From positions 45,435 to 109,434 of IMG/VR virus record IMGVR_UViG_2974770163_000001: a stretch of DNA of 64,000 bases; one strand, written 5' to 3'. This document shows positions 32,835-47,939 of the stretch, in pieces (the first letter of the stretch is position 1; every line of letters starts with the position of its first letter). The notes below the pieces were generated by a model. The model saw only the letters and a program-made list of their open reading frames with translations. It was not told where the DNA came from and did no database searches. Both the position numbers and the translations under genes were made by a program. Source of the DNA: a virus (Duplodnaviria > Caudoviricetes).

Positions 32835-32848
32835 AAAATCCTCAAATG

Positions 32849-32924: not shown

Positions 32925-32930
32925 GGTTAA

Positions 32931-33042
32931 TGGGGCGGGTCGTAGGGTTCGAACCTACATCGTTATTTCTAGTATTCCTATGGAGATACTAGTTTCAAAG
33001 CACGCCTTGAGAGCGCCGTCATTACATTATGACTATAACCGC
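32931..33042 (-). ncRNA. 112-nt tRNA-like RNA with ~41-nt variable arm (CAA anticodon in canonical register)
   Basis: GCGG/CCGC acceptor, GTCA/TGAC D arm, GTAGG-TTCGAAC-CCTAC T arm, CCA; insert hairpin CTAGTAT/ATACTAG. Confidence 0.75.
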
Positions 33043-33051
33043 AGTGTAAAT

Positions 33052-33127
33052 TGGAAGGGGAAGCGGGATTCGAACCCACGCTGTCAGAGTCAAAGGCTGA
33101 TGTGCTAACCACCTACACCATTCCCCA
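33052..33127 (-). tRNA. tRNA-Gln(TTG)
   Basis: Cloverleaf, CT-TTG-AC, CCA. Confidence 0.92.
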
Positions 33128-33133
33128 ATTGTT

Positions 33134-33216
33134 TGGTTGCGAGTACCGGAATCGAACCGATCTTGGCTATTGCCGGAGGGAATGAGCCTCCTGAGTTCCC
33201 AGAACTCTAACTCGCT
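33134..33216 (-). tRNA. Initiator-like tRNA-Met(CAT) with long variable arm
   Basis: A1.A72 mismatch, GGAGG-CTCATTC-CCTCC, extra arm GGC-AATA-GCC. Confidence 0.82.
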
Positions 33217-33402
33217 ATTGAAATTTTATATCTTTAATATGGATAGCACTTGGGTAGTACCCTTCCTCTCTTCCGAGAGTACGCTGAATATCAGCAGTGG
33301 TAGTGCCTTCCTCTACCCATAACAATTTTGGCTGTCTGGCTATATAACAATCAAGGTAGCCAGTGTTAATGCTATAATGAACTACAACTGGTACTTTAGC
33401 CA

Positions 33403-33666
33403 TTACTCATCCTCACAATCTTGGCAAACAGGGTCACAATGCTTATCAGACATTTCTGCGTATTCACAGTACCAACCACAGTTAGTACACTCAAATACTT
33501 CAGCTTCTACCAAAGCTGCTTCAAAAGTTTCTGAATCATCCTCTGGTAAATTAAATTCTTTGTTAAAATCTAAACGAGCATTGAAGTTTCTGTAAGTACA
33601 AGAACCCATAACATGGTCAACTACCCAGTTGTGCATGTCTGATGTTATAACCATTCTAAACTCCAA
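33403..33666 (-). CDS. Small Zn-finger protein
   Basis: CTNCGWYC...CQDC. Confidence 0.7.
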   Translation of the reverse strand: MEFRMVITSDMHNWVVDHVMGSCTYRNFNARLDFNKEFNLPEDDSETFEAALVEAEVFECTNCGWYCEYAEMSDKHCDPVCQDCEDE

Positions 33667-34177
33667 ATGTTGTATCTAAAACTTGTTTAAACGCTAACAG
33701 CTCGTCGTGTGTCATATCGTCTAGGTCTTTAGGTGACTGAACACCACCATGCTTAAATTTCTTTATTAACTTAGCACCAGCATTATCGGGATCACCTATC
33801 CAAACGAATTTTACGTTTGATTTATTTAATAATCGTAATAATGGTTTGTGCATTGAAGAACCTAGAACGCTTACTGCCGGAACACCAACACTATGTAAAG
33901 CTGTAGCTCTGAAAACTGCTTCTGTAACGTATACCACTTTTGCATCTTGAGGGACTGTATCTAATCCCCAAAGAGCTGGTTCTGACGACCAAGTAAAGTA
34001 TCTTGCATCACTTGGTTTATCTGCTTTCTTAGGTGAATCAGGAGAAAATACCTGAAAACCTACAAAACGACCATCTGTTGCGAAAAGAGGAAACGTTGCT
34101 TTGTTATTGTCGAGATCAACCCACACTTTGTGCTGGTCAGTAACTCGTTTTGCTTTAAGAGCATCTAAAACGTTCAT
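33656..34177 (-). CDS. Stand-alone TOPRIM (primase-like) protein
   Basis: FPLF, VYVTEAVF, IGDPDNAG, KDLDD. Confidence 0.8.
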   Translation of the reverse strand: MNVLDALKAKRVTDQHKVWVDLDNNKATFPLFATDGRFVGFQVFSPDSPKKADKPSDARYFTWSSEPALWGLDTVPQDAKVVYVTEAVFRATALHSVGVPAVSVLGSSMHKPLLRLLNKSNVKFVWIGDPDNAGAKLIKKFKHGGVQSPKDLDDMTHDELLAFKQVLDTTFGV

Positions 34178-34259
34178 TTATCAATTCCTCTCAATCAATT
34201 CAATATAAATATTATATCAAATCTGAAAGGAATTTGCAAATGATTTTTTGCTTTTAATT

Positions 34260-34348
34260 TGGCGGTAGGAGGAGGAATCGAACCCCCGCCATGTCCCCAC
34301 AACGTACCTGATTTCAAGTCAGGCTGCCCACCATTGAGCACTCCTACC
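34260..34348 (-). tRNA. tRNA-Ser(TGA)
   Basis: CCTGA-CTTGAAA-TCAGG, long variable arm, G73 CCA. Confidence 0.92.
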
Positions 34349-34684
34349 AAATTAGTTTTTAAATAAATCCATCAATACATCTAATATTTCTTCTACTGCA
34401 TGCTCTTTTTCTGTTGGATGAAAGTCTCGAACATCATTACAGATGGATTCACGAACTATTAATGCATCAACTGCTGTATATAATAGTTCTCTAAGATCTT
34501 TGTTTTCGTACTTTGACATATTACCCCTTAATAGAGTTAATTATCTTAGCAGCTTCGTCAGCATCATCTTTGTGGTAGTGCTTGCTAATAAGCCTGCCGT
34601 CTTTAGTGACAACAGCATACTCTCTGCAAGCACAGGTTTCTGGATGACAGCCCCAAGAATGACCAATATAGGTTACTATCACCA

Positions 34685-35190
34685 TTATGCGTATACCTTA
34701 CCTAAATCAACAATCTTAATCTCAACGGATATTAAAGACTGGAAGTAATCAGAGTTCCAGAAGTTATGGAATTTATGTACAGTTCCATCGTCCAGCTCTA
34801 ACTCAACCATGTAATCTTCGTACATTGAGTCGCTACGATCAGCGGTTCTTAAAATTACTTCAGAGGCTTTCTTAGCCAGTTCAATGCTTTCCCATTCATA
34901 AGGGATCTCATCTACTTCATCGTAAGAACCGAAAGAGTTACCATCACGGTACTCTATTACGATTTTGAATCTCATTTAATCACCTTTGCAGTATAAGTCG
35001 TTTTAAAGTAATCAGGTGTTTCAATAGTTTCCATATTTTCTGGCTTACCTAAGAATCTAGCAATAAATCCATCACCAGCATCGAATCCAACTGAATCACA
35101 CTTACACATCCAAAATTCACCGTATTCGGTAAAAGTATGTGTGTCACCACAAAGTTTACAACGTTTCGTTATAGGCGTGTACTTTTCCAT
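34685..35190 (-). other. Two hypothetical ORFs (34685-34975; 34972-35190, CxxC...CxC)
   Basis: RBS-supported starts downstream of tRNA-Trp. Confidence 0.7.
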
Positions 35191-35208
35191 TAGAAAGTCC
35201 TTATAAAT

Positions 35209-35282
35209 TGGCACAGGCTGGAGGAATCGAACCCCCGTCATTGGGTTTGGAAGCCAAGGTATTACCACTATACGAAGCCTAT
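35209..35282 (-). tRNA. tRNA-Trp(CCA)
   Basis: Loop TT-CCA-AA, G73 CCA, C.C mismatch at 31-39. Confidence 0.82.
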
Positions 35283-35294
35283 ATAAATATTATT

Positions 35295-35840
35295 CTAGAA
35301 AAATTCAACACGATCACGAATATCGAATGTAATAGAATAAACATCACCTTTAAACTCTTTTTCTGTTGTGAAGTTGTATTCCCCATCGTATTGGTGACGG
35401 TAGAAATGCACACCTTTATAAGTGAAGTCTTTTAAGTTTTCTAACTCACGAATAAACTCAAAGTAAGATAAGTTATTAGCCTTAGCTTTCTCAGAAAGTT
35501 CAGTAAAGTATTCAGTAAATATTTTACGTTCTTCAATAAAAATCATACCTGATTCAATGCGGGATAGCACAGAAGAGATATCTAGGATACCATAAGAATC
35601 CCCTAATACAGATTGAATAGTACGATACTCTTCTTCTGTAAGTTCTTTAACACAAAAAGTTGTGTCATGCAAGAATATTTGTTCATTAGTTCCAAAGTAA
35701 ATTTCTTGGTTCTCGACCTCTTCAAGACTGTTAAGTAGTTTAAGAGCTTGTTCTAATTCTTCACCCTTAAATAAGCCAAAACCTTCTACATCGAACTCGT
35801 CAGCATAGTTGTTTTCAACAGTGATTAACGCGTATTTCAT
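35295..35840 (-). CDS. Hypothetical acidic protein
   Basis: Start MKYALIT after AGGA; promoter at 35873-35901. Confidence 0.75.
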   Translation of the reverse strand: MKYALITVENNYADEFDVEGFGLFKGEELEQALKLLNSLEEVENQEIYFGTNEQIFLHDTTFCVKELTEEEYRTIQSVLGDSYGILDISSVLSRIESGMIFIEERKIFTEYFTELSEKAKANNLSYFEFIRELENLKDFTYKGVHFYRHQYDGEYNFTTEKEFKGDVYSITFDIRDRVEFF

Positions 35841-35919
35841 TTTTATTTTCCTTCTCATTAATTTATATAAATATTATATCAAATAAATGAGATTTTGGCA
35901 AATGAATTTAAAATTAAAT

Positions 35920-36043
35920 TGGTAGTCACTAAGGATTTGAACCTTATCACTGACTGCGGATTTACGGAGAAACCATCTAACCTAGGAATCGAACCTAGAC
36001 CTACCCTCGTGCCAGCCGGATTACACCACATCCGCGTTGACTA
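35920..36043 (-). ncRNA. 124-nt CCA-ended tRNA-like RNA with two T-arms and no anticodon arm
   Basis: CTAGG-TTCGATT-CCTAG and TAAGG-TTCAAAT-CCTTA; AGTCA/TGACT acceptor; GCGGAT/ATCCGC stem. Confidence 0.75.
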
Positions 36044-36129
36044 TATTAGTTGGGAGGGTTAGCAGCCCCTTAATAAGCATTTAGCAGATGCTTACTTACC
36101 CTTTAGCTTAGCTATATCGAATGATAATT

Positions 36130-36221
36130 TGGCAGAAGAAGTGGGAGTCGAACCCACAAGGCATATCGCTATACTCAGCTGCTTTCCAAGCAGTTCCCGT
36201 CGCCGATCGGTTTGTTCTTCT
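36130..36221 (-). tRNA. tRNA-Ser(GGA)
   Basis: TT-GGA-AA loop, long variable arm, CCA. Confidence 0.88.
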
Positions 36222-36227
36222 ATAAAT

Positions 36228-36304
36228 TGGTGGGACTAAGGAGAGTCGAACTCCTAAAATCTGCGTTCTAAGCACAGCACGTATGCCAGTTCCGTCATAG
36301 TCCC
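36228..36304 (-). tRNA. tRNA-Leu(TAG), short variable loop
   Basis: CTGTG-CTTAGAA-CGCAG, 77 nt. Confidence 0.9.
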
Positions 36305-36440
36305 TAATCTAATTTTATACTACGTACTTCATTATTCTGTTCTGCTTTTTCCTTAGCATCCATAAATCTTTTTAGTAGTAGATCCTTATCTCTCTTTATC
36401 TTATCAAAATCGATATTATTCATGTCTACTCCCATATGTT

Positions 36441-36517
36441 TGGTATCGAGGGCGGGGATCGAACCCGCAGAACCAGCATTTTAAGTGCTGTACGTTTGCC
36501 AATTACGTCACCTCGAC
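36441..36517 (-). tRNA. tRNA-Leu(TAA), short variable loop
   Basis: CAGCA-CTTAAAA-TGCTG, 77 nt. Confidence 0.9.
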
Positions 36518-36526
36518 ATTTTAAAT

Positions 36527-36600
36527 TGGAGCACCCTACTGGATTTTAACCAGTCTACGGAAGTTTGCAATTTCCTACCTAGTCACTCGGTCAAAGGCGC
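36527..36600 (-). tRNA. tRNA-Cys(GCA)
   Basis: TT-GCA-AA loop, U73, atypical T loop TTAAAAT. Confidence 0.85.
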
Positions 36601-36607
36601 ATTGAAT

Positions 36608-36919
36608 TTATTTTTGAGCAACGAATACTTCGATGCCTTTATCTAACAGTTGGTCAAGTTCTACGTCAACTTTAATATCTAAGCCCTCAACACGGGCTTT
36701 TATACCCAGTGCGGTACCTGTCCATGGGTACTCATGACCATGATCGTAATCAACACCACCGTATTCCCAGATCATTAACTTAAACTTGATACCATTGATC
36801 TTAACAGTATATTTCTTTTTGTCTTTGTAGTGAATATATACTGTCTCACCAGCTTCGTTAATAAAGAAGTAGCGGCGAGGTCCCCAATCTTGCTCGAACT
36901 GCATTTTAAAAAAGTTCAT
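36608..36919 (-). CDS. Hypothetical protein
   Basis: AGGAG RBS before MNFFKMQF. Confidence 0.75.
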   Translation of the reverse strand: MNFFKMQFEQDWGPRRYFFINEAGETVYIHYKDKKKYTVKINGIKFKLMIWEYGGVDYDHGHEYPWTGTALGIKARVEGLDIKVDVELDQLLDKGIEVFVAQK

Positions 36920-36934
36920 AGTAAACTCCTTATA

Positions 36935-37140
36935 GAGTTGATTAAAGCTATATGTATATGGTCTCGTTGAAGCCCCTTCGGTATATTCCACGGAGCAACC
37001 GAACAACCTAGACCCTTAAGATACTGACTCGCCAAAGTCAGGTGAGAAAACCACTTCTCACATCTCTGCATACTCAGTGTATCGCAGTCTTTTTGTTGGC
37101 AGCTGGTTCTGGTCATTTATACATATACTTTAATCAACTC
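36935..37140 (-). ncRNA. 206-nt structured RNA candidate
   Basis: ~23-bp terminal stem, four internal hairpins, two potential pseudoknots. Confidence 0.7.
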
Positions 37141-37295
37141 AGTTGATTAAAGGTGAGCATAGCCGAGTACTCACGTTGAATTAGTTAGATTCATTTGTTT
37201 ACGGTGCGAGCCACTTAAGGCGTCGGTTGGCGGAGCGCATTCTCCGTTCCCAACCCGTCCATACTAACTTCCAGCGGTAACTAGTCGCTATCCGT
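37141..37295 (-). ncRNA. ~150-nt structured RNA candidate
   Basis: Stems GGTTGG/CCAACC, CGGAG/CTCCG, GTGAG/CTCAC, TGAAT/ATTCA, with AGTTAG/CTAACT crossing pair. Confidence 0.55.
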
Positions 37296-37495
37296 TAATA
37301 TAAATTTTTAGAATCTAGATGGATAAATTTCTTTCAGCCTAGACTTTACATATCCTGTATCATCTCTAACGGCATTCTCAAGCTGTAAAATGTAGTCATA
37401 CACTGGTTTTGGTACAGCTACATGCTCAATAACACCATCACCTACCTGAACTGCCACGTTACAGTTACCATCTGAGTATGGTCTAAATGTCATGG

Positions 37496-38455
37496 CTACA
37501 CCTTTCCTTTAAAGTAGGCAACAGCTACTCGACTGATAGCCTTAGCCACATCTTTGAATTCGAGACCGGATGCTGCTAGTGTGTCACTTTCTTCTTTTAT
37601 GATATCCTTATTCAACCACTTAAGAAATGCTCCGGTATTAGCCAAATCAGCACCACCAACTTCAGTAATGCCTTGATCGAGTCTAGACTCGGTAGTCACA
37701 TATTCGACGAACTCGGTGATAGACTTAGCTACTTCAGGGTCTACAGACGCCAATGTACGAACTTTAGAAGATGAGTGTTTATCTCCTTTGACCTTAAACC
37801 ACAAATCTTTATTTTTAACAAGTTCATCGTCTAGTGGGCGCCATACAACTCCTTCTCCTGTACCAGAGATTCCGAAGTACGCTCCAGCTGGGCATTCCGC
37901 TTCAACCCTAACTGTAAGGTCAACTAATTCATTCTGAACTTCTGCCGGATTAGTTGGATCAATAGTAACGTAGTAAGCACCAAACTGTGAAATATTATAA
38001 ATCACTGGGCTGTATTGACCAATGTCATGATCAAACGGAAGCCATTCGATACTATCGTTGTTAGTAATATTTCCGTAGCCGAACACGGAGAAGAATTTTG
38101 GTAGACCATTTAACGCAACTCCACGTTGAATGTTGCCACCAGCAAACTCGCCACACATAATGATTGGCAATTTAGCCTCTGGATGGTTCTCTAAGATTTC
38201 CTGAGCCATCGCTTCAAATTTGTTGGCATAATCTTGGACGTACTGTGCAAAACCAGCGTTATCCTCGTCAACTGTTAAAAAACGTGTTTTGGATTGTGGA
38301 TACAAGTTAAAATTCTCATCCACAATTACAGATGCGTTCGTACCGTGCAGTTTTGTGTATCCAACATATTCTACGCTAGAAACACTGTCTAATCTACGTA
38401 ATTGAGAAACTGCATTACGAAACTGTTGAATAGATGGGAACTTTACGTTATTCAT
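37496..38455 (-). CDS. RNA ligase, Rnl2 family
   Basis: Motif I TKLHGTN, III GEFAG, IV EGVVWRP, V FKVK; promoter at 38487-38515. Confidence 0.88.
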   Translation of the reverse strand: MNNVKFPSIQQFRNAVSQLRRLDSVSSVEYVGYTKLHGTNASVIVDENFNLYPQSKTRFLTVDEDNAGFAQYVQDYANKFEAMAQEILENHPEAKLPIIMCGEFAGGNIQRGVALNGLPKFFSVFGYGNITNNDSIEWLPFDHDIGQYSPVIYNISQFGAYYVTIDPTNPAEVQNELVDLTVRVEAECPAGAYFGISGTGEGVVWRPLDDELVKNKDLWFKVKGDKHSSSKVRTLASVDPEVAKSITEFVEYVTTESRLDQGITEVGGADLANTGAFLKWLNKDIIKEESDTLAASGLEFKDVAKAISRVAVAYFKGKV

Positions 38456-38751
38456 TATTTATTTCCTCATTTCAGTTTATAAATATATTATAACTGAAAT
38501 TTAAGTATTTGACAATTGATTTTTTAATTTAATATCCGTAAACTATCAAAGGACATTAACGGTATTTCTTTAACAGGTACTTGTTCCATCACTAGAGTCT
38601 CTTCAAATACCTTTCGATCTACAAGAACTAACTGTTTACGAGTTGTTCTTTCAGGAATCTCCATAACTAAAATAGTTGGAGATTCTAGGATAATTGGCAT
38701 TCGTAACAGTGAGATCTTTGCTCTACTACGCATAGTAATTATCCTTAGAAT

Positions 38752-38827
38752 TGGCGCGGGCGAGGGGACTCGAACCCCTGCTGTACGGGTTGGAAGCCCG
38801 ACCGAATAGCCGCTATCTTACGCACGC
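38752..38827 (-). tRNA. Atypical tRNA-Gly(TCC)
   Basis: CGGG-CTTCCAA-CCCG, good T arm, weak D arm, G73; 5' end overlaps upstream CDS. Confidence 0.7.
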
Positions 38828-39108
38828 TTAAATAATTGTTTAAACTTATCCCAAAGTGTTGGCTCAGCTTTTTTAGTTGGCATTGCCGATGGGATGGTAT
38901 GTGCCTGCTTATATTCTTGTTCCGCTTGATCTCTAGTTTTTGCTAGAGTAGAGAACAAAGTATAGGATTCACCAAGTTCATCCAGTTCCTGTAATGTGAT
39001 GGTTTGATTATCTTCAAGATACACAAAATCTATACCCTTCTTAGTTGTATAAACTTTACTTACAGGATACTTCAGTAAAATATAACCTGATGCTAAGTAT
39101 TTTTGCAT
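38818..39108 (-). CDS. Hypothetical protein
   Basis: 96 aa, coupled to upstream ORF. Confidence 0.7.
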   Translation of the reverse strand: MQKYLASGYILLKYPVSKVYTTKKGIDFVYLEDNQTITLQELDELGESYTLFSTLAKTRDQAEQEYKQAHTIPSAMPTKKAEPTLWDKFKQLFKRA

Positions 39109-39464
39109 TAATAATGTACTCTTGTTAGTGTAACACCCATATCCGCTAAAAATTTCTTTGCAGACATCATAGATTCTGCCGCAGCAGGATTAGAGGTATG
39201 CACTGTAATACTTTCTAGTGCTGGAAACTCTTCGAAAAATACCATTGCTTCAACAGTATTGAAGATGTCTCTTCCCTCAACTTGCTCACCTAGGTCATTA
39301 TCAAGGTGAATATGTGTAATTAATTCTTTGTCACGATCAATAAACATCATCGCAGACTTAGAGTCTTGAGCTACCAAAATCTTTTTAAAATGATTTAATT
39401 CTGTCAGAAAATTCATGGGTAGACGTTCATCGTCTACCCACAGTAAAACTTTATCTTTAATCAT
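39108..39464 (-). CDS. Cyclic-phosphate-processing receiver-domain protein
   Basis: LWVDDER.P, IHLDNDLG, VHTSNP signature. Confidence 0.8.
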   Translation of the reverse strand: MIKDKVLLWVDDERLPMNFLTELNHFKKILVAQDSKSAMMFIDRDKELITHIHLDNDLGEQVEGRDIFNTVEAMVFFEEFPALESITVHTSNPAAAESMMSAKKFLADMGVTLTRVHY

Positions 39465-39663
39465 GGCACGATCTCTATTGGTTGCTTACCGTCCCAATTT
39501 GAATCAGCTAGGACACGTTTGTAGAACAAATATCCAATATCACCTTGATCTTGTGGATCTGTAATGATTTTGCCTACATCCTTATCGGAAAAGTAAAATG
39601 CTTTCGCTGCATCTGAACCTACGGATAACTTGAAAGTTTCCATAAAACCTCCGGTAATAAAAT

Positions 39664-39748
39664 TGGCGGGCGGTGTAGGATTTGAACCTACGTTGTCCTT
39701 TCGAACACGGATTAACAGTCCGTCGCTAAACCACTCAGCTAACCACCC
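39664..39748 (-). tRNA. tRNA-Asn(GTT) with long variable arm
   Basis: ACGGA-CTGTTAA-TCCGT, extra arm GTTC-GAAA-GGAC. Confidence 0.9.
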
Positions 39749-39754
39749 TTAAAT

Positions 39755-39831
39755 TGGTACTGCGACCTGGGTTTGAACCAGGGAACCTCTCGATTATCAG
39801 TCAAGTGCTCTACCAACTGAGCTATCGCAGT
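39755..39831 (-). tRNA. tRNA-Ile(GAT)
   Basis: CT-GAT-AA loop, CCA. Confidence 0.92.
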
Positions 39832-39931
39832 ATTAACTGTAAAAACACTCCTTGAATGTTCTTACAGTTAATTTTGTAAAACTAACTGGTTCAGCCTCTA
39901 TTGAGTTACGACAAGAACGTGCCGATGCATT

Positions 39932-40121
39932 TGGTGCTCTGGAACGGGAGTCGAACCCGCAAATACTAAGATCCTCATTCCTACTCACTGGTCTGCGTAG
40001 TCCAGCCCCTCGGTGCTATTGGATTCTTTTCTTCTGTACCCGAACCTAGTTACTATTTTAACCTCACAGCCTCAATCCACGCAGATGAAAGAGCTAAGCA
40101 ACCTAGTTGTACAACCAGACC
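39932..40121 (-). ncRNA. 190-nt RNA with tRNA acceptor/T arm and a large insert (tmRNA-like topology)
   Basis: 5' GGTCTGG pairs with 3' CCAGAGC-A-CCA; GCGGG-TTCGACT-CCCGT; TCTGCGTGG/CTACGCAGA stem. Confidence 0.75.
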
Positions 40122-40127
40122 ATAATT

Positions 40128-40205
40128 TGGCACTGTAGAAGGGAGTCGAACCCTCAATGCTCCACCTTGAAAGGGTGGTGACTTTACCAGTTTGTCCACT
40201 ACAGT
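40128..40205 (-). tRNA. tRNA-Glu(TTC)
   Basis: CCACC-CTTTCAA-GGTGG. Confidence 0.92.
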
Positions 40206-40211
40206 ATAATT

Positions 40212-40296
40212 TGGTGCAGGATCGTGGACTCGAACCACGGAACCCCGAGGGGTGGAGATTTACAGTCTCCTGTCATTGCCGCTAGACTAATCCTGC
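40212..40296 (-). tRNA. tRNA-Tyr(GTA)
   Basis: GGAGA-CTGTAAA-TCTCC, long arm. Confidence 0.92.
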
Positions 40297-40385
40297 TTAA
40301 TTCTTTATCAATTTCCTTTCTCTCAATTCAATATAAATATTATATCAAAGATTTGAGTATTTGGCAATTGAATTTTTAAATAATT

Positions 40386-40461: not shown

Positions 40462-40462
40462 T

Positions 40463-40538
40463 TGGTGCCGACAGAGGGAATCGAACCCACGACCTGATGC
40501 TTACAAGGCAACTGCTCTACCTGCTGAGCTATATCGAC
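40463..40538 (-). tRNA. tRNA-Thr(TGT)
   Basis: CT-TGT-AA loop. Confidence 0.92.
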
Positions 40539-40543
40539 TAAAT

Positions 40544-40617
40544 TGGTACTCGCTGATGGAATCGAACCACCGCCTAGACCTTGTAAGGGACTAGTACTAC
40601 CATTATACTAAGCGAGT
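40544..40617 (-). tRNA. tRNA-Val(TAC)
   Basis: CT-TAC-AA loop. Confidence 0.9.
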
Positions 40618-40842
40618 ATTATAAGTGACCTGCTTTCTTCAACTGACGTTCCATAAACTTCTGACACACTTTCTGTAAATAGCCAGACTTAGTATGATCG
40701 TACAAAACTCTCATTTTATTAGTGAATAGGGTTGCCCCGTCTTCACGTGTTGCTGAGTACGTCATTGTTACTAGTCCGTCTCTGTAATCAGAGAATTGGT
40801 AGTTAAAGCTGATTTTCTTAGACATATAAGACTCCTATAAAT

Positions 40843-40920
40843 TGGGGTGACGGACGGGACTTGAACCCGCACATTCCCGAATCACAATCGGGGGCATTAA
40901 ACCAATTCTGCTACCGCCAC
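40843..40920 (-). tRNA. tRNA-His(GTG)
   Basis: CCCGA-TTGTGAT-TCGGG, C73; base at -1 is T. Confidence 0.9.
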
Positions 40921-41061
40921 ATCTAAGAAACCTCGTAAAGTACCTTAGATGTAGGCGGTAAAGCCTACACTAGATTTATGAGTATATTTTGTATCTGTCA
41001 CGATACTCAACACTACCGTTAATCTACAACGCCGTAAGCACCCCCTCACGGTGGAGACTTC

Positions 41062-41136
41062 TGGTGCACCATAGTGGTATCGAACCACTCTATCAGGCTC
41101 TTCAAACCTGCGCTAATCCATCTCAGCTAACGGTGC
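41062..41136 (-). tRNA. tRNA-Phe(GAA)
   Basis: CAGGT-TTGAAGA-GCCTG. Confidence 0.9.
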
Positions 41137-41360
41137 AAAATTCTTGTACTCACATGAAACCCCTGATATGGAAGAACTGTGGAGAGTACCTTTCTCAGTT
41201 TTGGCGATCTATTCTCTCAGGTTTTGCACGTCTCATAAATGGAGTGCTTCGTAAGGCTGCCTTTAGCTCAGACATTCACCATTACACGCCCAACCGTACC
41301 TCGGAATTTATAGTCTAGGAGGGTTGACTTAGAGCTATCTTATCTGCTTTTCAGCAAATT

Positions 41361-41437
41361 TGGCAGGTATGACGGGGATCGAACCCGCTATCTCCGCAGT
41401 GACAGTGCGGTGTCTTGACCATTTCGACCTCATACCT
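41361..41437 (-). tRNA. tRNA-Asp(GTC)
   Basis: CCGCA-CTGTCAC-TGCGG. Confidence 0.92.
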
Positions 41438-41443
41438 ATTGTT

Positions 41444-41520
41444 TGGTGGAGTCACTCAGGTTTGAACTGAGTTCAAAAGCTTGCAAGGCTAATAGTTTAA
41501 CCATATTAACGTATAACCCC
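41444..41520 (-). tRNA. Atypical tRNA-Ala(TGC)
   Basis: G3.U70 and A73 present; anticodon stem has only 3 pairs. Confidence 0.7.
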
Positions 41521-41524
41521 ATAA

Positions 41525-41608
41525 TTAATAAGTAACCTCGAAGTAGGTGCTGTCTCTACTTCAAGATAGCCATCAGCACTGGTAAGACTATTTGGAGTTA
41601 CTTATTAA
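41525..41608 (-). ncRNA. 84-nt three-way junction RNA with kissing loops
   Basis: 12-bp closing stem; loops carry complementary GTGCTG/CAGCAC. Confidence 0.72.
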
Positions 41609-41636
41609 GTGACCTTTATAAGTAAAGGTCGAAAAC

Positions 41637-41712
41637 TGGTGGAGAAGATGGGAGTTGAACCCACGACCGTCTGCTTGCAAAGCAGGTGCTCTACCAATTG
41701 AGCTACATCCCC
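41637..41712 (-). tRNA. tRNA-Ala(TGC)
   Basis: Canonical cloverleaf, G3.U70. Confidence 0.93.
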
Positions 41713-41719
41713 ATAAATT

Positions 41720-41796
41720 TGGTCTCGAATAAAGGATTTGAACCTTTGACCCCACCGCCCCAAACGGCGTACTCTACCAGACTGAGCTAATCCGAG
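41720..41796 (-). tRNA. tRNA-Pro(TGG)
   Basis: CGCCG-TTTGGGG-CGGTG; overlaps upstream CDS end. Confidence 0.92.
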
Positions 41797-42314
41797 ATGA
41801 TCTCACTACCTAGTTCAATATGAGCTATTTCTAGACGATCTCCACGTTCCCAATCATCACACTGCATATCAACTTTTTCAAATATGAAGTCTTGACTTTC
41901 TTGACTAGTCATAGACTTCAGGCTTTCAAATTCTTCATCAGTCAAAACTACTTCTGATGTAACTTCAATAACTTCTGTTGCATATACTTTATAAACACGT
42001 TTAGTCATTTTTTATTTCCTTTCTCAAGTTTATAAATATATTATACAGTAAATTTAAGCATTTAGCAACTGATTTAATAAACTTTTTGCTTACTGCATAC
42101 CTAGGAACTCATACGGTGTAAACACGTCGAAACCATTAAAATCTTCTGGATGGTTTATATCTTGAGTGTACGTATGTCCAAATTTATTTCTCTCTTGAGA
42201 AAAACATTTACCTTTCCATATAGCTATAGTAGAGTTTCGGCTAGTACCTTTATAGATACCACCAACAACTAAATCACTCTTCGGTATTACATCTTTCATA
42301 AAGACCTCGGAAAT

Positions 42315-42409
42315 TGGAGGAAGAAGCGGGACTTGAACCCGCACACCATCTTTCGACAGCTACTAACTGTTTAGCAAACAGCTCCCTTACCTATTAGGGT
42401 TACTCTTCC
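42315..42409 (-). tRNA. tRNA-Ser(GCT)
   Basis: TT-GCT-AA loop, long arm. Confidence 0.9.
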
Positions 42410-42643
42410 AAATTTAAATAGACTAATTCATTAGATAGCCGCAAAAGTTCTTCTTTCTTCAGATCAAACCCAGCATCTGGCTTTTCAGCATGGGCTTTAT
42501 CTAAGATAGGGAGCATTGCTTCAACTAATGCAAGTGCTGCCATACTCATTTTATGTAGGCTTTCTCTAGCTCCTAGTTTATCGTGTGTCATGTGTGCCCC
42601 CTATTTATTTTGCTTTTTCTAACCGGTATTATAGGTATAATAG

Positions 42644-43111
42644 TTAATCATCATATTCGCCATAATCACCAAAATATTCATTGTTGCGTATAGCGGTAAC
42701 ACTACTCTTGTATACCCTAGATAGGTATTCCTCAATAAGTTGAATGTTGTCAACTTTGCAGATGACTTCATCATAAAACACTACGTCACCTTTCGTATTT
42801 GTATAGCTTTGCTTAACTACCTGATATAGGTCAGGCATTAAAAAGCGCATAAAATCCCAATCATTAAGTTGATCTTCTGTTAGAACCGGAGCATCTGCAA
42901 TTACAATACCATTTTTAATCCATTCACGAAAAACGTTCTCTACATAGTCGTAGTCTACACTATCATAACAGTGAGCTGAAGGGATCAGGCTAATATTAGC
43001 TTCTGGGTGCTTCTCACACTCAACAAGCCAGCCCGATGCGTAACCACCCCCACAAGTTTCGCAATCCATAGAATCATGTAAATAAGTTACTTTAACACAA
43101 AACTGTTCCAT
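42644..43111 (-). CDS. Hypothetical protein with CxxC / C..H motifs
   Basis: AGGAG RBS before MEQFCVK. Confidence 0.75.
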   Translation of the reverse strand: MEQFCVKVTYLHDSMDCETCGGGYASGWLVECEKHPEANISLIPSAHCYDSVDYDYVENVFREWIKNGIVIADAPVLTEDQLNDWDFMRFLMPDLYQVVKQSYTNTKGDVVFYDEVICKVDNIQLIEEYLSRVYKSSVTAIRNNEYFGDYGEYDD

Positions 43112-43129
43112 CTTGTCTCCTAGTAAAAT

Positions 43130-43203
43130 TGGTGCAGCGTACAGGAGTCGAACCTGTCTCCCCAGATTAAAAGTCTGGTGCTCAGCCGATAAGCCAACGC
43201 TAC
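43130..43203 (-). tRNA. tRNA-Lys(TTT), divergent copy
   Basis: CCAGA-CTTTTAA-TCTGG. Confidence 0.85.
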
Positions 43204-43209
43204 TAAATT

Positions 43210-43285
43210 TGGTGCGTAGTATAGGATTTGAACCTATGACCTTGGGATTAAAAGTCCCCTGCTCTACCAACTAAGCTAACTACGC
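43210..43285 (-). tRNA. tRNA-Lys(TTT)
   Basis: GGGA-CTTTTAA-TCCC. Confidence 0.92.
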
Positions 43286-43530
43286 ATTATTCTTTTGGAT
43301 GTTTGTTAACTTCTGCCTTAGCAAAGGCTAATTCGTCTAACAGAGATGTTACCAAATCTTCCGCTAAGAGTTCTAAATCATTGATGCTTTGTAAGAACCC
43401 CTCCGCTTTCTTATTAGAAATGCTAGATGCGTAAAGCTCGGCATCTAAACTCTCTAGGAACGAGTTGATTTTTCTTACAGCTTCAATTGCACTAATTCGT
43501 GTACCGATCATATTTGACTCCCTGGTCAAA

Positions 43531-43841
43531 ATTAATTAAGGTTGATTTCCCTGTGCCCTGGCAGAGGCAAACTAAGCCACCACAGCTTAGAACTTCTTTG
43601 AGACGGTCTTGCGAAGAGAATTAGTCACCTAGTTATTCACACTCACCGTTTCAAGGAGTAAATGTTACTAGAACTGGTACGAGGTATGCTCTTTCTCACC
43701 ACTCGAGCTGCTGTAGGGACTCGAACCCTACAGAGCATAGGTTTACCCTCTAAACTGTACCTTCGCCCGTTTCGTGCTTGCCACACGCTCGTATCGGACT
43801 CAGTAATAACTCAAAGATTTCAGGAAAATCACTTAATTAAT
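43531..43841 (-). ncRNA. 311-nt multi-domain RNA containing a tRNA-elbow mimic
   Basis: 21-bp terminal stem; T arm then D-like arm inside TATGCTCT/AGAGCATA; promoter at 43860-43888 directly upstream. Confidence 0.78.
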
Positions 43842-43967
43842 CTCGATTTCATAAAATATATTATATCAATAAATTAACCATTTGACAAGTAATTTTTTAA
43901 ATATTTACTAGAGAGCTAGTGGCTAACTGTCTAGTAAATATCCCCTCCAGAGAGGGAATATTACAAT

Positions 43968-44537
43968 TTACTTGGTGAACTTAATGGATTCTTGAACACG
44001 AGTTTCAAAGATACCTTGAGTTCTAGCATCAGATACGATTTCACATAATGAATCAATATCTTTCTTAGGGAATCCAGCAAAGGCTAAGAATCGACCCTTC
44101 CAGAAGTATTCTAATTGATTACGATACGTCGCACACTGTTCCAACTTACGATTCTGAGCAATAGCAAATTCGTTACGACCAGCCGTGATTTCATGTTGGA
44201 TATTCAAGTATAATGCTGAATCCAAGTTCAGGTTACGTTCTTGAATCCATTGAAAAACAGCCTTAGAGCCGTCTGCACCATAACGACCTTGGAAAGTCTC
44301 TTTAATAACTTCTTTCAAATCGTTTTTATACATTTCAGGGACTTGAATGATTTCCCCAATTTTTACGGTGTAGTTGCTAAGTTTGTTCTCGGACTCCTTA
44401 TCTAAGCGAACGATGTTGTTTTCCATTCGTGTAGCTTCGTTTGATGTAGATACGTACCCTGCAAAGATACCTAAACCACCAACGATAAGAACAGTTAATA
44501 ACACTAGAATAGCTACTAGACCTTTGGTCAATTTCAT
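43968..44537 (-). CDS. Membrane-anchored helical protein (LemA-like)
   Basis: N-terminal TM, helical body, C-terminal Y...L..F...FL..AGFP. Confidence 0.65.
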   Translation of the reverse strand: MKLTKGLVAILVLLTVLIVGGLGIFAGYVSTSNEATRMENNIVRLDKESENKLSNYTVKIGEIIQVPEMYKNDLKEVIKETFQGRYGADGSKAVFQWIQERNLNLDSALYLNIQHEITAGRNEFAIAQNRKLEQCATYRNQLEYFWKGRFLAFAGFPKKDIDSLCEIVSDARTQGIFETRVQESIKFTK

Positions 44538-45583
44538 TATAAATCCTCTTTAATACAAAAGATTGCAAAGCCGATATTGGCAATAAAGTTTAATACGATT
44601 ACAAAGATTAATGCACTAGTTGGAATATCAACTACATCATCTAGGTACTTAAATGTATCATTTGGTAATCGCTTGTAGTGTTTAACAATTAAATCGTACT
44701 GTGTCTGTACTAGACTTAAATTGAACTCTGGAGACTCAAGACCGGTAGCTGCTAATTTAGTCAGCAATAGTTGGTTGTCTTGTCCATTTCCTATGGTATT
44801 CGCTCTTAACCATTTTACCCTATTATCGTCATCCAAACTGTAGACGATAACAACATCATTCTTTTTACCACCATGCCACTTGTTCATTAGTGCGTCAAAG
44901 AAATCTTCACCAGCTTGTGTAACCACTAACGTTACATTGAGTTGGTAAGTAGAACCATCTAACCTCAACTTTTCGTTGAGAAAGTTGTTGATATCAGGTG
45001 CATACTTACCAACAATTCTATTCATTCTGTAGTAGTCGTATACTCGCGGATACTCCGGTAAACTATCAGCGTACTTTTCTAAAGTAGCATCTTCCACAAC
45101 GTACATACCTTTATCCAACTTAGTGTAATTATTAACACTAAAGGTAGAGGAGTAGGGCTCACCTACTACTGCTGCTGACCATCTAGGTGGTTCTTTAAGT
45201 CCACGTCGATCTACTCGGCTAATTCTTGAGTAATCAATAGTAGATTCAACAATCCAATCTACGTCGTATGAATGCTCATCACAATAGATTGGTATACAAG
45301 TCCTATTGCCTTTTGAATCTGTAGAACATGTTTCACCACATTTATATTGGTGTTCACAACTAACACGTTCAGAATATTTTTTGGTTACATAACCATTTCG
45401 TATTTCAGTATCCCATTTACCGGAGCTTGCTGCAAAAACAGCCATTCCTAGCATTAATAGAGAACTGAATGCTGCTACCCCTAACTGAATAAGTAGCTCT
45501 TTTCTAGAGATCTTATGTCTAAAGAAAATGTTAGAGATAGCAACTACAAACAGGGAACAGGCAAATAAGATAATGAAATACAT
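44537..45583 (-). CDS. Multi-pass membrane protein with Cys-rich periplasmic domain
   Basis: Two N-terminal and one C-terminal TM; CEH.Y.C...C...C..HSYD; W.GGKKND. Confidence 0.8.
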   Translation of the reverse strand: MYFIILFACSLFVVAISNIFFRHKISRKELLIQLGVAAFSSLLMLGMAVFAASSGKWDTEIRNGYVTKKYSERVSCEHQYKCGETCSTDSKGNRTCIPIYCDEHSYDVDWIVESTIDYSRISRVDRRGLKEPPRWSAAVVGEPYSSTFSVNNYTKLDKGMYVVEDATLEKYADSLPEYPRVYDYYRMNRIVGKYAPDINNFLNEKLRLDGSTYQLNVTLVVTQAGEDFFDALMNKWHGGKKNDVVIVYSLDDDNRVKWLRANTIGNGQDNQLLLTKLAATGLESPEFNLSLVQTQYDLIVKHYKRLPNDTFKYLDDVVDIPTSALIFVIVLNFIANIGFAIFCIKEDL

Positions 45584-45618
45584 CTGGTTTCCTTAGATTG
45601 TAGTTGCTTTATTAAAAT

Positions 45619-45694
45619 TGGTGCACCTAGGAGGGACTCGAACCCACAACCAAGCCCTTATGAGGGGCACGCTCTACCATTGAGCTACTGGTGC
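45619..45694 (-). tRNA. tRNA with CAT anticodon, probably Ile2
   Basis: CT-CAT-AA loop; C4-G69 and C5-G68 (TilS determinants), A73. Confidence 0.85.
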
Positions 45695-45702
45695 GGTAAA
45701 AC

Positions 45703-46083
45703 TTAAGCTACTAACGCGTATAGATCGCCCGCTAACAGTTCGTAAGATTCTCCTGTCTCACCATGAGTAACGCCCATGATAACAACATCTTCATCTTCAC
45801 CACCTTGTTTAACTTGCTCAGCCATAACAGAGAATACATGTACTGCATTATCATTTAGGTCGCCATTCTCGATTGCGAAGATAACATCTTCCATCATCAG
45901 AGTTGCTTCGCCGTCTTCACTTGGAACTACGATGAACCAATCTTCTAACATACCCTCTGCGATTGCTAATCGCATGAACTCAACAACGTCTGCTGGAGTT
46001 TCAACGTTGATACCTTGGTTTTCCAGTTCCGCAGTCATAACAGCAGAAACAACACCAGCGATTTTAACAGATACTTTAGACAT
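45703..46083 (-). CDS. Acidic hypothetical protein
   Basis: 126 aa; promoter at 46122-46150. Confidence 0.75.
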   Translation of the reverse strand: MSKVSVKIAGVVSAVMTAELENQGINVETPADVVEFMRLAIAEGMLEDWFIVVPSEDGEATLMMEDVIFAIENGDLNDNAVHVFSVMAEQVKQGGEDEDVVIMGVTHGETGESYELLAGDLYALVA

Positions 46084-46171
46084 ATTTTATTTCCTTTTGG
46101 ATTGATTAATTTATAAGATATATTATACAGAAAAATTCAGGATTTGACAATTGAATTTTTAAGTTTTAAAG

Positions 46172-46246
46172 TGGTACTCCCTGTAGGATTCGAACCTACG
46201 TCTATCGGTTTAGAAGACCGATGCCTATCCTCTAGACTAAGGGAGT
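46172..46246 (-). tRNA. tRNA-Arg(TCT)
   Basis: TCGGT-CTTCTAA-ACCGA. Confidence 0.92.
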
Positions 46247-47241
46247 GGAATTAATTCTACTGTTACTGGAACACAGCCTGTTGGAGGATTTTCAAAAACA
46301 TCCTCACACTTAACAGTATATGCCGGTTCTGGAGCAAATTCTAGCATTTGGTTGGCTAGGGCACTATCTGCCTGAATGTTGTTATTTATGAGCCATGATC
46401 GGAGAGTTGGAACCATCCAACCCTTAATCTGATCTTTGTCTTTGGCAGGAGACTCTAAGATCTCCTGTTCTCCGGTATCAATATATGTAATAAGAATATC
46501 TTCTTTAAGAATAATTGGCAAGATTGCCTCCTACACCTCTAGCATAGTTATGTTTACTAGACTATTAGTAGCAGTGTGAGTACCTACACACTCTTCTCTA
46601 ATGATTAGATCAAATAGGGCTTGGTCATCGATATTGATACCTAAATCATCAGCCAACATGTTCTGTACGTCTGCTGGAGTAGTCTCATCCCCATCAAGCA
46701 TAATCTGAACTTGTTCAAATTTCTCTGTCTGTAAAATCGTAATAATGTAGTCCATTAATGACTCCTTGTAGGTTATAATTAGTGAGCAGTTTTGGAGATG
46801 CTCAGCTCCACGGTTCCCCAAGGTAGTAGGGAATTAATCTAATTCAACCCAATCATTATTGGATATATTTTGACCGAAAACACCGCCGTAGAAATAATCA
46901 TCTTCATCCGTGCTCGGGAACACGATATTACCTCCGTAGTACCCATTATGCTCAGTGCGGCATTCGATATCCATTACACCAGTAGTTGTATTGATCTTGC
47001 AACCATAACGGTCTGTAACATCTCCCCATTCACTATCACTTATAGAATCAAGAGTATATGTATCTATACTAGTGATCGTAAAAGGCATACTAACTGGTAG
47101 ATCTACGTGCTGGAAGAAGCTATTAGCACAGCAGTCTCCGTCTACACGGATGATTAGATCCTCGCCTTGATCTGTAACTAATTTAATAGCTAAATCGTCG
47201 GACGCTTTAAACACTTGTACAATTGTTTTTCCGATTAACAT
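46237..47241 (-). other. Three hypothetical ORFs (46237-46521, 46531-~46755, 46834-47241)
   Basis: RBS-supported; the last has DCC...HNGYYGG motif. Confidence 0.7.
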
Positions 47242-47254
47242 TGTTTAATCTCCT

Positions 47255-47939
47255 AAAGTTGAAAGTGGTATGGGTTTAGGCTTTCTTCGTCTGCTTGACT
47301 GCCGGTTAGACCTGGCTTGCTGCATGTAGTGCCAGCGATGCTTAATTATAAGCCTCAGTTATCCTATTCTTTGCCATGTTATGGTTAACTGCATAGTCCA
47401 TCACCCCATAGCCAGTGTTATAACATAAGCGAGTTCGACACACCCATTTCGGGAAGTACTCTACACTTTTTCCAAATATCCATCTTAGATATGCAATCTA
47501 GGTCGGAGGTAGCCTCTCCTTTTATTTGGTGTGCTACGAGTAAAGTATATCCCGAAATGGGGAGTGATCAATTCCTCATTTCCAAGTTAAGTACTTGGGA
47601 CTCAGTAGTTCTAGTTCGCGACCTAGACTACCTATTCGTTGTTTTCACACATCATGCTCCTCGGGCGGAGGAATCGAACCTCACTAGAGCGCTATTTCCC
47701 AGAACCCCGTATCTTCGCAGTCTTTGTGCTACTTACTGCTTCTCCATACACTGCCCAGAGGGGGTTTCACCGTATTCGGCTCTCGTATATGGAAAGACAG
47801 AGTTTAGTGAGAGGGTTAACTTACTCTCAACATATTCTCTCAGACTCTGCACATTGTACTATGAGTCTCAGCGTAGTATGCCCGCTGTGCCTCTTATTAA
47901 ATCGTACTTTTAGACTTAATTGCCGTGTTCCGATTCAAT
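47255..47939 (-). ncRNA. ~680-nt large structured RNA candidate
   Basis: Follows promoter TTGACA-17-TATAAT (47946-47974); no RBS-supported ORF; 12-bp and 9-bp crossing helices; T-loop hairpin. Confidence 0.72.

Follow-up and report, generated by a model that had tools for sequence, protein, structure and literature searches.

What do the tRNA-free gaps within a phage transfer RNA (tRNA) island encode? We address this question in a window of 64,000 nucleotides (nt) that forms the final 64 kb of the 109,434-bp IMG/VR virus record IMGVR_UViG_2974770163_000001 (positions 45,435 to 109,434). The window comes from a T5-like phage whose closest relative is Providencia phage vB_PreS_PR1 (hereafter PR1; Demerecviridae, Priunavirus), with 90.5% identity across 75% of the length of the tRNA region; the next-nearest relatives are Proteus phages of the genus Novosibvirus. 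ARAGORN with default settings predicts 27 tRNAs in the window, all on the minus strand. A preliminary description of this DNA had proposed about ten structured elements free of open reading frames (ORFs) among these tRNAs. Its 11 coordinates correspond to nine gaps on the tRNA strand (E1 to E9), most of which we find to be real elements, while E6 is unsupported.

We conclude that most of the gaps are structured noncoding RNAs (ncRNAs) co-transcribed with the tRNAs, and this conclusion is well supported. Its basis is conservation, covariation, the lack of conserved ORFs, promoters, synteny, and the presence of a T5 homologue in RNA libraries. The gaps and the elements within them are as follows.

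32925-33051, minus strand: E1, tRNA-shaped, in the gap between tRNA-Gln and tRNA-Met; 5-nt "anticodon" loop, long variable arm, T-arm, and CCA
35905-36129, minus strand: E2, a gap containing E2b and E2a
35918-36044, minus strand: E2b, tRNA-shaped, carrying two T-loop hairpins and ending in ACCA; orthologue of the T5 misc_RNA "rna2"
36045-36129, minus strand: E2a, two hairpins directly after tRNA-Ser(gga); present in Novosibvirus, not in PR1
36920-37307, minus strand: E3, ~390-nt structured RNA in the intercistronic space that separates the RNA-ligase operon genes from a 103-aa ORF
39832-40127, minus strand: E4, a gap containing E4b and E4a
39832-39928, minus strand: E4b, three hairpins, including one of 19 pairs, upstream of tRNA-Ile; diverged from PR1
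39929-40127, minus strand: E4a, acceptor/T-arm minihelix with a ~160-nt insert, ending in CACCA; shared with PR1 only
40921-41061, minus strand: E5, four-hairpin RNA between tRNA-Phe and tRNA-His; 86% identity to PR1
41137-41360, minus strand: E6, 224-nt ORF-free spacer between tRNA-Asp and tRNA-Phe; unsupported as a structured RNA
41521-41636, minus strand: E7, a hairpin and a domain with a 12-pair closing stem, between two tRNA-Ala(tgc) copies
43530-43859, minus strand: E8, structured leader of ~330 nt with a T-loop hairpin, following a promoter at 43888-43860 and ending at the ORF 43287-43529
47242-47945, minus strand: E9, large structured RNA of ~700 nt; Priunavirus member of a modular family

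The T-loops and CCA ends attributed to these elements are present in part of the set. T-loops (GGTTCRAnnCC plus a stem) occur in five of the nine gaps (E1, E2, which has two, E4, E8, and E9) and not in the other four, and acceptor-like strands ending in NCCA are seen in E1, E2, and E4. Several single positions of the preliminary description are borne out: 35920 and 39932 are CCA ends, 36935 and 37141 mark the two strands of the E3 closing helix, and 47939 is the expected start after the E9 promoter. As described, two elements sit directly at strong promoters with an extended -10 TG, namely E8 (11/12, 43888-43860) and E9 (12/12, 47974-47946), while E1, E4, E5, E6, and E7 have a tRNA on both sides. 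The elements share promoter-driven units with the tRNAs, which agrees with the co-expression that had been suggested.

Folding energies differ widely among the gaps. Minimum free energy (MFE) z scores against dinucleotide shuffles are strongly negative for E3 (-4.9), E7 (-4.8), E8 (-4.4), and E9 (-4.4), lower in magnitude for E5 (-2.7), E1 (-1.7), and E4 (-1.6), and 0.0 and +0.2 for E2 and E6, respectively. Eleven 300-nt windows of coding sequence from this phage, used as controls, range from -1.26 to +1.39, with 0/11 reaching -2.6. Comparison of homologues for covariation, which had been proposed as a check, supports E9, E3, and the rna2-like part of E2. We also searched Rfam 15 at gathering and relaxed thresholds (window positions 32500-48300 at E up to 5; four T5-like loci at E up to 1). 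This search recovered the tRNAs and only the tRNAs in the window, placing none of the elements in a named family. In particular, the tRNA model RF00005 (≥29 bits, cloverleaf, 7-nt anticodon loop) did not match E1, E2b, E4a, E8, or E9 at E up to 5. A search for transfer-messenger RNA gave 0 genes with ARAGORN -m and no Rfam match in the window. A scan of the window for a ToxI-like tandem array of ~34-36-nt repeats returned only six AT-rich micro-repeats with a period of 9-12 and ~2 copies.

The elements do not form the single coordinated RNA set that had been envisaged. They are a mosaic of very different phylogenetic depth: one is family-wide, one is common to T5, one to Novosibvirus, four are shared with PR1 only, and two are unique.

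A large modular RNA at the head of the island

The element with the deepest conservation is E9. Its parts, promoter, and upstream synteny anchor are the following.

48279-48713, minus strand: YqeY-like gene ("tRNA amidotransferase" in annotations), upstream of E9 with a 94-aa ORF between; synteny anchor
47946-47974, minus strand: sigma-70 promoter of E9 (TTGACA, 17 nt, TATAAT, with TG; 12/12 consensus)
47787-47892, minus strand: block A, the 5′ domain, with a CAGCR/YGCTG hairpin and GAGAGAATA...TAAACTCT motifs
47666-47684, minus strand: T-loop hairpin with a GGTTCGATTCC loop and a covarying stem
47611-47626, minus strand: hairpin with a self-complementary UCGCGA loop, invariant in 7/7 Priunavirus and Novosibvirus sequences
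47443-47561, minus strand: domain with the long-range closing helix CCCATTTCGGGA / TCCCGAAATGGG, from the alignment fold
47339-47452, minus strand: block B, a conserved 12-pair helix with a variable tip insert (a 41-nt hairpin in the window)

E9 is 82% identical to PR1 and about 64% identical to five Novosibvirus (Proteus) phages. Searches with blastn place it in 13 phage records, at 82% in PR1 (two records) and ~72% over 59-65% of its length in Novosibvirus, and in all of these records it stands at the head of the tRNA island. In a seven-sequence alignment of Priunavirus and Novosibvirus, invariant blocks lie between variable stems. The RNAalifold structure comprises 153 pairs with 94.2% of cells paired. 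We find that 26 of the 153 pairs have changed on both sides, compared with 11.8 ± 2.4 in shuffles (0/500) and 3-5 in slid controls, a contrast that for E9, as for E3, is inflated because the structures come from the tested alignments.

Within this fold, the T-loop hairpin keeps its stem through changes of sequence (GAGG/CCTC, TGGG/CCCA, TACGG/CCGTA, or TAGG/CCTA in different homologues), and the Rfam tRNA model does not match it. The helix that closes the domain at 47443-47561 (helix 17) has 28 pairs, of which 19 are invariant, with 93.8% of cells paired; seven pairs of the inner helices 18-20 have changed on both sides. The UCGCGA loop may serve as a kissing-loop contact, judging from its self-complementary sequence. 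A profile search detected no second copy of E9 or of E3 in the window, and an 18-mer from E9 found two known Proteus phages plus three chance matches within unrelated coding sequence.

The E9 profile, built from seven sequences, extends the family well beyond these close relatives. It matches the syntenic region of Tequintavirus MM-1, from the YqeY-like gene to tRNA-Arg, in two co-linear blocks, and it also matches Epseptimavirus, Sugarlandvirus, and, for block A, Pectobacterium phage DU_PP_V. Among 72 other loci (758,642 nt), 39 were matched, all at the syntenic site and with no off-target match; many of the 72 had been fetched by the family motif, so 39/72 speaks to specificity and not to prevalence. 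Twenty loci of unrelated phages, the T5 st0 record, and the Vibrio phage Bennett locus gave no match to the profile. Rfam searches of four T5-like loci returned tRNAs and weak chance matches only, and E9 itself has no match in Rfam 15; there is likewise no Rfam model for the T5-type versions.

Block B is recognized in 39 loci (nhmmer E 7.5e-10 to 3.9e-4). Its motif, GGTGT(1-3 nt)GAAMTSRCTTATGTNNYAAC paired with AAGA...GATAACT around a variable insert, is found in the window at 47339-47452. The helix has 12 pairs with two conserved mismatches, is paired in 18/18 sequences, and covaries at 5/12 pairs. Across these 18 sequences, which represent at least six lineages, 299/299 cells are paired over 17 counted pairs, and 10/17 of these have changed on both sides; 2/500 shuffles score as high, and slid controls give 0-2. 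The tip of this helix is a plain hairpin of 26-45 nt in the window phage, PR1, Novosibvirus, and one Epseptimavirus. The T5-like phages have a pseudo-tRNA of 60-85 nt there instead, which scores 26.6-38.3 bits against the Rfam tRNA model and has been variously annotated as pseudo-tRNA (unnamed or tRNA-OTHER), tRNA-OTHER, tRNA-Sec, and tRNA-Ser.

Block A consists of a CAGCR...YGCTG hairpin followed by GARAGAAT/GAATAGA...TAAACTCT. The regular expression for this motif recovers 27 distinct sequences, including Tequintavirus, Epseptimavirus, Sugarlandvirus, and Pectobacterium phage DU_PP_V, and nhmmer gives E values of 0.00088 and 0.00065. A presence/absence polymorphism of block A is seen among close Tequintavirus relatives: ~150 nt are present between the promoter and block B in MM-1-type phages (locus L033, 4491-4642) and absent at the equivalent site of the T5 type strain (L057, 6385-6445) and from eight other loci. 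In Epseptimavirus Salmonella phage MET_P1_137_112, the site where block A would stand, between the YqeY-like gene and the pseudo-tRNA, is taken up by an HNH homing endonuclease gene (L035, 444-926).

The layout around these two blocks differs between lineages. In Priunavirus and Novosibvirus, ~400 nt separate the blocks and contain the T-loop hairpin as well as a domain with an invariant 12-pair closing helix; in T5-like phages, the blocks are adjacent and are followed by a different 3′ extension. This modular layout is all for which we used a cross-genus MAFFT alignment of whole regions, which aligned T-arms and not the core blocks. The self-complementary RAGTCATGAC is present in 30/30 T5-like loci with enough sequence and in 5/5 Novosibvirus, and is not found in the window or in PR1.

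The position of the family is constant. The region always heads the tRNA island, lies upstream of tRNA-Arg(tct) wherever that gene is found, and follows a strong promoter downstream of a YqeY-like or endolysin gene; at the position of the E9 promoter, a promoter-like repeat also occurs in PR1, Novosibvirus, and T5-like phages. The T5-type region is found in 540 phage records and the Priunavirus/Novosibvirus type in 13. A search for the family motif returned 31 IMG/VR loci and 11 metagenome contigs; among 185,579 bacterial and archaeal species genomes, 0 carry it.

The YqeY-like gene (Pfam YqeY 24 bits, under the cutoff of 27) is present in 498 phage records by tblastn. In Tequintavirus, in Epseptimavirus, and at some Novosibvirus loci, it immediately precedes the large-RNA region; a small ORF intervenes in the window, in PR1, and in Stubb. 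A search for related loci that started from its protein gave only remote phages of no relevance here, which were left aside. Window and PR1 have YqeY-like proteins that are 100% identical, yet E9, just past the 94-aa ORF, is only 82% identical; therefore the RNA region is either fast-evolving or the site of a mosaic boundary. The first ORF after E9 encodes a DUF7448 protein (46834-47241, minus strand; E 2.8e-24), a slot that is taken by tRNA-Arg in Novosibvirus and T5-like phages.

In wild-type T5 (AY587007), the pseudo-tRNA is the only annotation in the 840 nt from ORF076 to tRNA-Arg, and the large-RNA region is not annotated as RNA. The st0 deletion mutant (AY692264) is without the whole segment; thus, the RNA is dispensable in the laboratory. 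The T5 stretch is found in 14 runs recorded as RNA, from four studies. In two RNA immunoprecipitation sequencing (RIP-seq) studies, an adapter-flanked break falls at exactly L057:5712. This candidate processing site is 37 nt upstream of the 5′ end of T5 tRNA-Arg, at the base of a conserved hairpin.

E3, the smaller elements, and their setting

E3 is conserved at 95% identity in PR1 and 66-70% in Novosibvirus, and is present in 12 phage records. Of its 79 predicted pairs, 22 have changed on both sides (11.3 ± 2.3 in shuffles, 0/500; slid controls 0-6). The strands of its main helix and the nearby RNA ligase gene are located as follows.

37118-37139, minus strand: 5′ strand of the 22-pair long-range helix of E3, which can pair instead with an upstream copy of CTTTAATCAAC
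36935-36958, minus strand: 3′ strand of this helix, ending 5 nt before the TAAGGAG ribosome-binding site (RBS) of the ORF that starts at 36919
37496-38455, minus strand: RNA ligase gene, 319 aa (Pfam PF09414, E 1.8e-11, 45 bits, cutoff 27)

This helix (helix 8) closes a domain of ~165 nt, with three of its 22 pairs covarying and 98.7% of cells paired. As read off the alignment, an upstream copy of the 3′ strand can form a competing local hairpin, in which wobble keeps the pairing. The PF09414 gene lies two genes upstream of E3, inside the tRNA island, and accounts for the RNA-repair ligase that the preliminary description had placed there. The PR1 annotation has no such product in the matching stretch, which is occupied by shorter hypothetical genes.

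Among the smaller elements, E2b and T5 rna2 find each other by reciprocal nhmmer over the same interval (E 0.0078 with the window as query, 0.0021 with T5 as query), and a nine-sequence alignment gives 26 consensus pairs, 13 of them compensatory. Their common fold has a terminal stem, a D-like hairpin, a long arm with an internal T-loop hairpin, and a T-arm; the long arm with its second T-loop hairpin stands in place of the anticodon arm of a tRNA. A weak nhmmer match to E2 (E 0.00056) in Vibrio phage Bennett (L034, 1680-1876) overlaps tRNA-Asn and could be either rna2-like or a T-arm similarity. The adjoining E2a has 85% blastn identity to Novosibvirus (L010, 14563-14632).

For E1, E4, E5, and E8, comparison with PR1 yields a total of nine compensatory, ten one-sided, and zero broken pair changes, in structures fitted to both sequences, which favours an outcome without broken pairs. 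E1 contributes two compensatory pairs in its long variable arm and no broken ones; neither the Rfam tRNA and tRNA-Sec models nor ARAGORN match it. The whole of E4 has five compensatory, five one-sided, and no broken changes. Its E4a part is 100% identical to PR1 over ~200 nt within surroundings that differ by ~10%, and relaxed ARAGORN reports a weak "tRNA-Leu" there at 39932-40008; a 24-mer from E4 had no match in IMG/VR. In Novosibvirus, the syntenic spacer between tRNA-Glu and tRNA-Ile is 167-170 nt long with two long closing stems (L003, 17427-17594; also L009, L010, and L011) and is unrelated to E4 in sequence. E5 has one compensatory, four one-sided, and no broken changes. E8 has one compensatory change, and its covariation is nearly unreadable because it is 98% identical to its sole other holder, PR1.

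E7 and E6 are without homologues by blastn in 50,697 phage records. Support for E7 is thus its fold energy alone. E6, which the preliminary description had included at 41140, combines this with a z score of +0.2, and in PR1 it is absent, tRNA-Phe and tRNA-Asp being adjacent there. A 20-nt likeness between E6 and E9 was considered as a sign of paralogy and rejected, as 38/500 shuffles reach its score and a coding control exceeds it.

The surrounding tRNA genes include a 28th, tRNA-Cys(gca) at 36527-36600 (minus strand; Rfam 37.3 bits and relaxed ARAGORN), which default ARAGORN misses and whose equivalent is annotated in the PR1 record. tRNA-Ala(tgc) occurs twice (41444-41520 and 41637-41712), with a single Ala in PR1; the second copy arrived together with E7. 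There are two tRNA-Lys(ttt) within 43130-43285, where PR1 has one annotated Lys, and three tRNAs with anticodon CAT (32849-32924, 33134-33216, and 45619-45694).

Explanations for the gaps

We consider it probable that the gaps encode genuine ncRNAs of three classes that are co-transcribed with the tRNAs and accessory to the phage, with E9 as a free-standing particle. Strong early promoters of the island would produce long precursors carrying ncRNAs, tRNAs, and small ORFs. In the first class, E9 would be the Priunavirus version of a modular RNA of 0.7-1.3 kb that heads the tRNA island in enterobacterial Demerecviridae, including T5, and that combines two conserved core blocks with lineage-specific stems, the T5-like pseudo-tRNA being apparently grafted on the tip of a conserved helix. 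The second class would be represented by E3, a putative large intercistronic fold whose 22-pair closing helix abuts the RBS of the next gene. The third class would comprise E1, E2b, and E4a, which seem to keep the acceptor/T-arm half and NCCA and to have lost a working anticodon arm. E5, E7, and E8 are probably hairpin-rich spacers or leaders.

Stable RNAs of the T4 and T5 tRNA clusters are reported to be released by RNase P and 3′ trimming. The tRNA-like halves and flanking tRNAs of the window could likewise allow excision and stabilization by RNase P and the enzymes that trim tRNA 3′ ends. The elements may serve accessory functions in host interaction and not core replication, because they are gained, lost, or swapped between close relatives (E2a, E6, and E7 are absent from PR1) and because T5 can lose the segment that contains its copy of the large RNA. 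The step that we hold least firmly is that the large RNA would fold by itself into a particle of the GOLLD/ROOL kind and act in trans on tRNA metabolism. Its strongest form, a new ornate class that assembles into a multimeric particle through self-complementary loops, displays or encloses a tRNA-like module, and acts on tRNA metabolism or tRNA-directed defence, seems to us unlikely.

Several observations weigh against the explanation that we favour. RNase P processing, trans action, and particle formation are steps that we infer. The z scores of E2 and E6 are near 0, and E1, E4, E5, E7, and E8 are each found in no more than one other phage. For E9 and E3, the alignments represent approximately three independent lineages and also supplied the structures that were tested on them. 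If E9 is one closed molecule, it depends on long-range pairs that are weak (helix 3 has four pairs, is broken in 2/7 sequences, and shows no covariation), and the T5-type versions have ordinary MFE z scores (MM-1, -1.0; DU_PP_V, -1.5). Block A is not universal, being absent in 10/41 T5-like loci including T5; it has been lost independently, and E9 may therefore be a string of separate modules and not one RNA. The RNA-library evidence comes from T5 and not from the phage of the window itself, and contigs from one run per study, which cover the T5 large-RNA region completely in 4/4 studies, give weak support: they leave strand, level, and true ends unreadable, stretches that they do not cover carry no meaning, and they could include DNA carry-over. 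Finally, the 66-aa ORF of E3 is open in 5/7 homologues, being broken in PM135 and VTCCBPA139.

The main rival explanation is that the folds are cis-acting leaders or processing sites that work within the precursor, as points of RNase III or RNase E entry, 5′ stabilizers, antitermination signals, or translational switches, with stable fragments as by-products. We regard this as possible but not probable. E8 and E9 do lie between a promoter and the first downstream gene with no terminator after them, the E3 helix ends 5 nt before an RBS and next to a conserved competing hairpin that suggests a switch, and helices of 22 pairs have the length of an RNase III substrate. The break 37 nt before T5 tRNA-Arg is as expected of a processing site, and contigs are continuous from the YqeY gene through the T5 RNA region. 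However, the partner downstream varies (the DUF7448 ORF in the window and PR1, tRNA-Arg in Novosibvirus and T5-like phages), a length of 0.7-1.3 kb with conserved unpaired blocks far exceeds the needs of known leaders, and a leader has no evident use for the complete pseudo-tRNA in T5-like block B. The idea of the preliminary description, that tRNA-shaped RNAs and the pseudo-tRNA are anti-defence decoys that bind or distract tRNA-targeting nucleases or sensors, appears doubtful to us. The RNA ligase gene in the island, the tRNA-like halves kept under selection, and a presence that varies between close relatives, as it often does for counter-defence genes, would suit such decoys, and T5 tRNAs have been reported to counter PARIS and retron Eco7. 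The defence nucleases named in those reports cut anticodon or variable loops, whereas the anticodon arms here are lost, with a loop of just 5 nt in E1 and a second T-loop hairpin in place of the arm in E2b. The tRNA-shaped elements are thus not obvious substrates of anticodon nucleases, because their anticodon arms are defective or replaced. Furthermore, E9 of the window has a T-loop hairpin and no pseudo-tRNA, and any link from an element to a defence system would be drawn by analogy.

The gaps could also be residues of decay, with the T-loop elements as degenerate tRNA duplicates and the rest as neutral filler between mobile cassettes. tRNA duplicates are indeed present (two Ala, two Lys, three with anticodon CAT), E6 is without any signal, homing endonuclease genes invade the region in relatives, and annotators label the T5 element a pseudo-tRNA. 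Relics would not, however, hold their pairing through compensatory changes, rna2 and blocks A and B persist where the neighbouring YqeY proteins are only ~33% identical, and E4a is unchanged from PR1 within diverging surroundings; we therefore hold decay to be quite unlikely. Missed genes for short proteins are a very improbable source of these patterns. In favour of such genes, the E3 ORF overlaps the start of the next gene as ATGA, and annotators of PR1 and Stubb placed small coding sequences inside the E9 region. Yet the conserved residues of the E3 ORF coincide with conserved RNA blocks, its indels shift the frame, and 0/7 ORFs inside the elements match Pfam or PHROGs. Homologues of E9 share no conserved ORF, the ORFs found there differing in strand, place, and length in each lineage, and a 140-aa antisense ORF in the window E9 is unique to the window phage. 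The claim that the elements are ORF-free accordingly stands for most of them, with the ORF of E3 as the part that does not fit it.

Relation to known RNAs

Small non-tRNA RNAs in tRNA clusters are already on record, since the T5 tRNA genes in GenBank AY692264 are interspersed with six annotated misc_RNAs (RNAI, RNAIII, RNAIV, RNA1, rna2, and RNA2H). The comparison with small stable T5 RNAs made in the preliminary description is therefore apt, and it extends to orthology between rna2 and 35918-36044. Like the elements of the window, the T5 misc_RNAs are interleaved with tRNAs on the tRNA strand, some of them directly after promoters, and at 103-172 nt they are similar in size, with terminal stems, T-loop hairpins, and NCCA-like ends. 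The small RNAs of the window are thus new members, one of them an orthologue, of the class annotated in T5. The other five T5 misc_RNAs have no detectable homologue in the window, and E1, E3, E4, E5, E7, and E8 have none in T5. We know of no function for the T5 misc_RNAs.

The resemblance to tRNA in E1, E2b, and E4a lies in a T-arm with GGTTCRAnnCC, an acceptor-like stem, and a discriminator with CCA. Unlike tRNAs, the tRNA-shaped elements E1 and E2b have a defective or replaced anticodon arm, and ARAGORN detects the tRNA-shaped elements of the window at relaxed thresholds, if at all. Stable non-tRNA RNAs in the T4 tRNA cluster have been known for decades. RNAs C and D of T4 (species 1 and 2) are small, co-transcribed with tRNAs, matured by tRNA enzymes, and have tRNA-like ends. 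They belong to a different phage family, and we set them beside the RNAs of the window by description only; we know of no 0.7-kb RNA in the T4 tRNA cluster. The window adds that RNAs of tRNA clusters are under structural selection and turn over quickly between related phages, with at least one small RNA (rna2) and one very large RNA common to several Demerecviridae genera.

The large family looks new within a known kind, the large phage RNAs at tRNA islands. A description of a large T5-family RNA was not found in the literature searched, a scope that left older T5 papers and supplements outside. The insert on a conserved helix explains the scattered "pseudo-tRNA," "tRNA-OTHER," and "tRNA-Sec" calls in T5-like genomes, and we advise that small hypothetical proteins not be annotated on these RNA stretches.

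The comparison with GOLLD and ROOL that had been drawn for the island fits E9 by location and size, while E9 does not match the Rfam models of either. GOLLD and ROOL, as presented in PMC12286853, are RNAs of phages and prophages, often near tRNA islands, with function unknown; the same source states that GOLLD has a conserved and a less conserved portion, sometimes with tRNAs in the linker, that ROOL is non-essential, and that Rfam 15 includes models of both. Like these RNAs, E9 is longer than 500 nt, phage-encoded, and near a tRNA island. The E9 family shares with GOLLD the combination of conserved blocks and variable parts and carries a pseudo-tRNA insert. The segment with its T5 copy can be deleted, which parallels the non-essentiality reported for ROOL. 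The family differs in its hosts, which are virulent enterobacterial siphoviruses, and its T5-type versions have unremarkable fold energy. An oligomer of the GOLLD/ROOL type would have its sole hint in the self-complementary loops UCGCGA and RAGTCATGAC, known here from sequence alone. In the large RNA, GOLLD and ROOL may have a counterpart within a phage-host system that is open to routine genetics, RNA sequencing, and biochemistry. If it does form a particle, the role of large tRNA-island RNAs would become tractable in E. coli, with T5 st0 as a natural deletion mutant.

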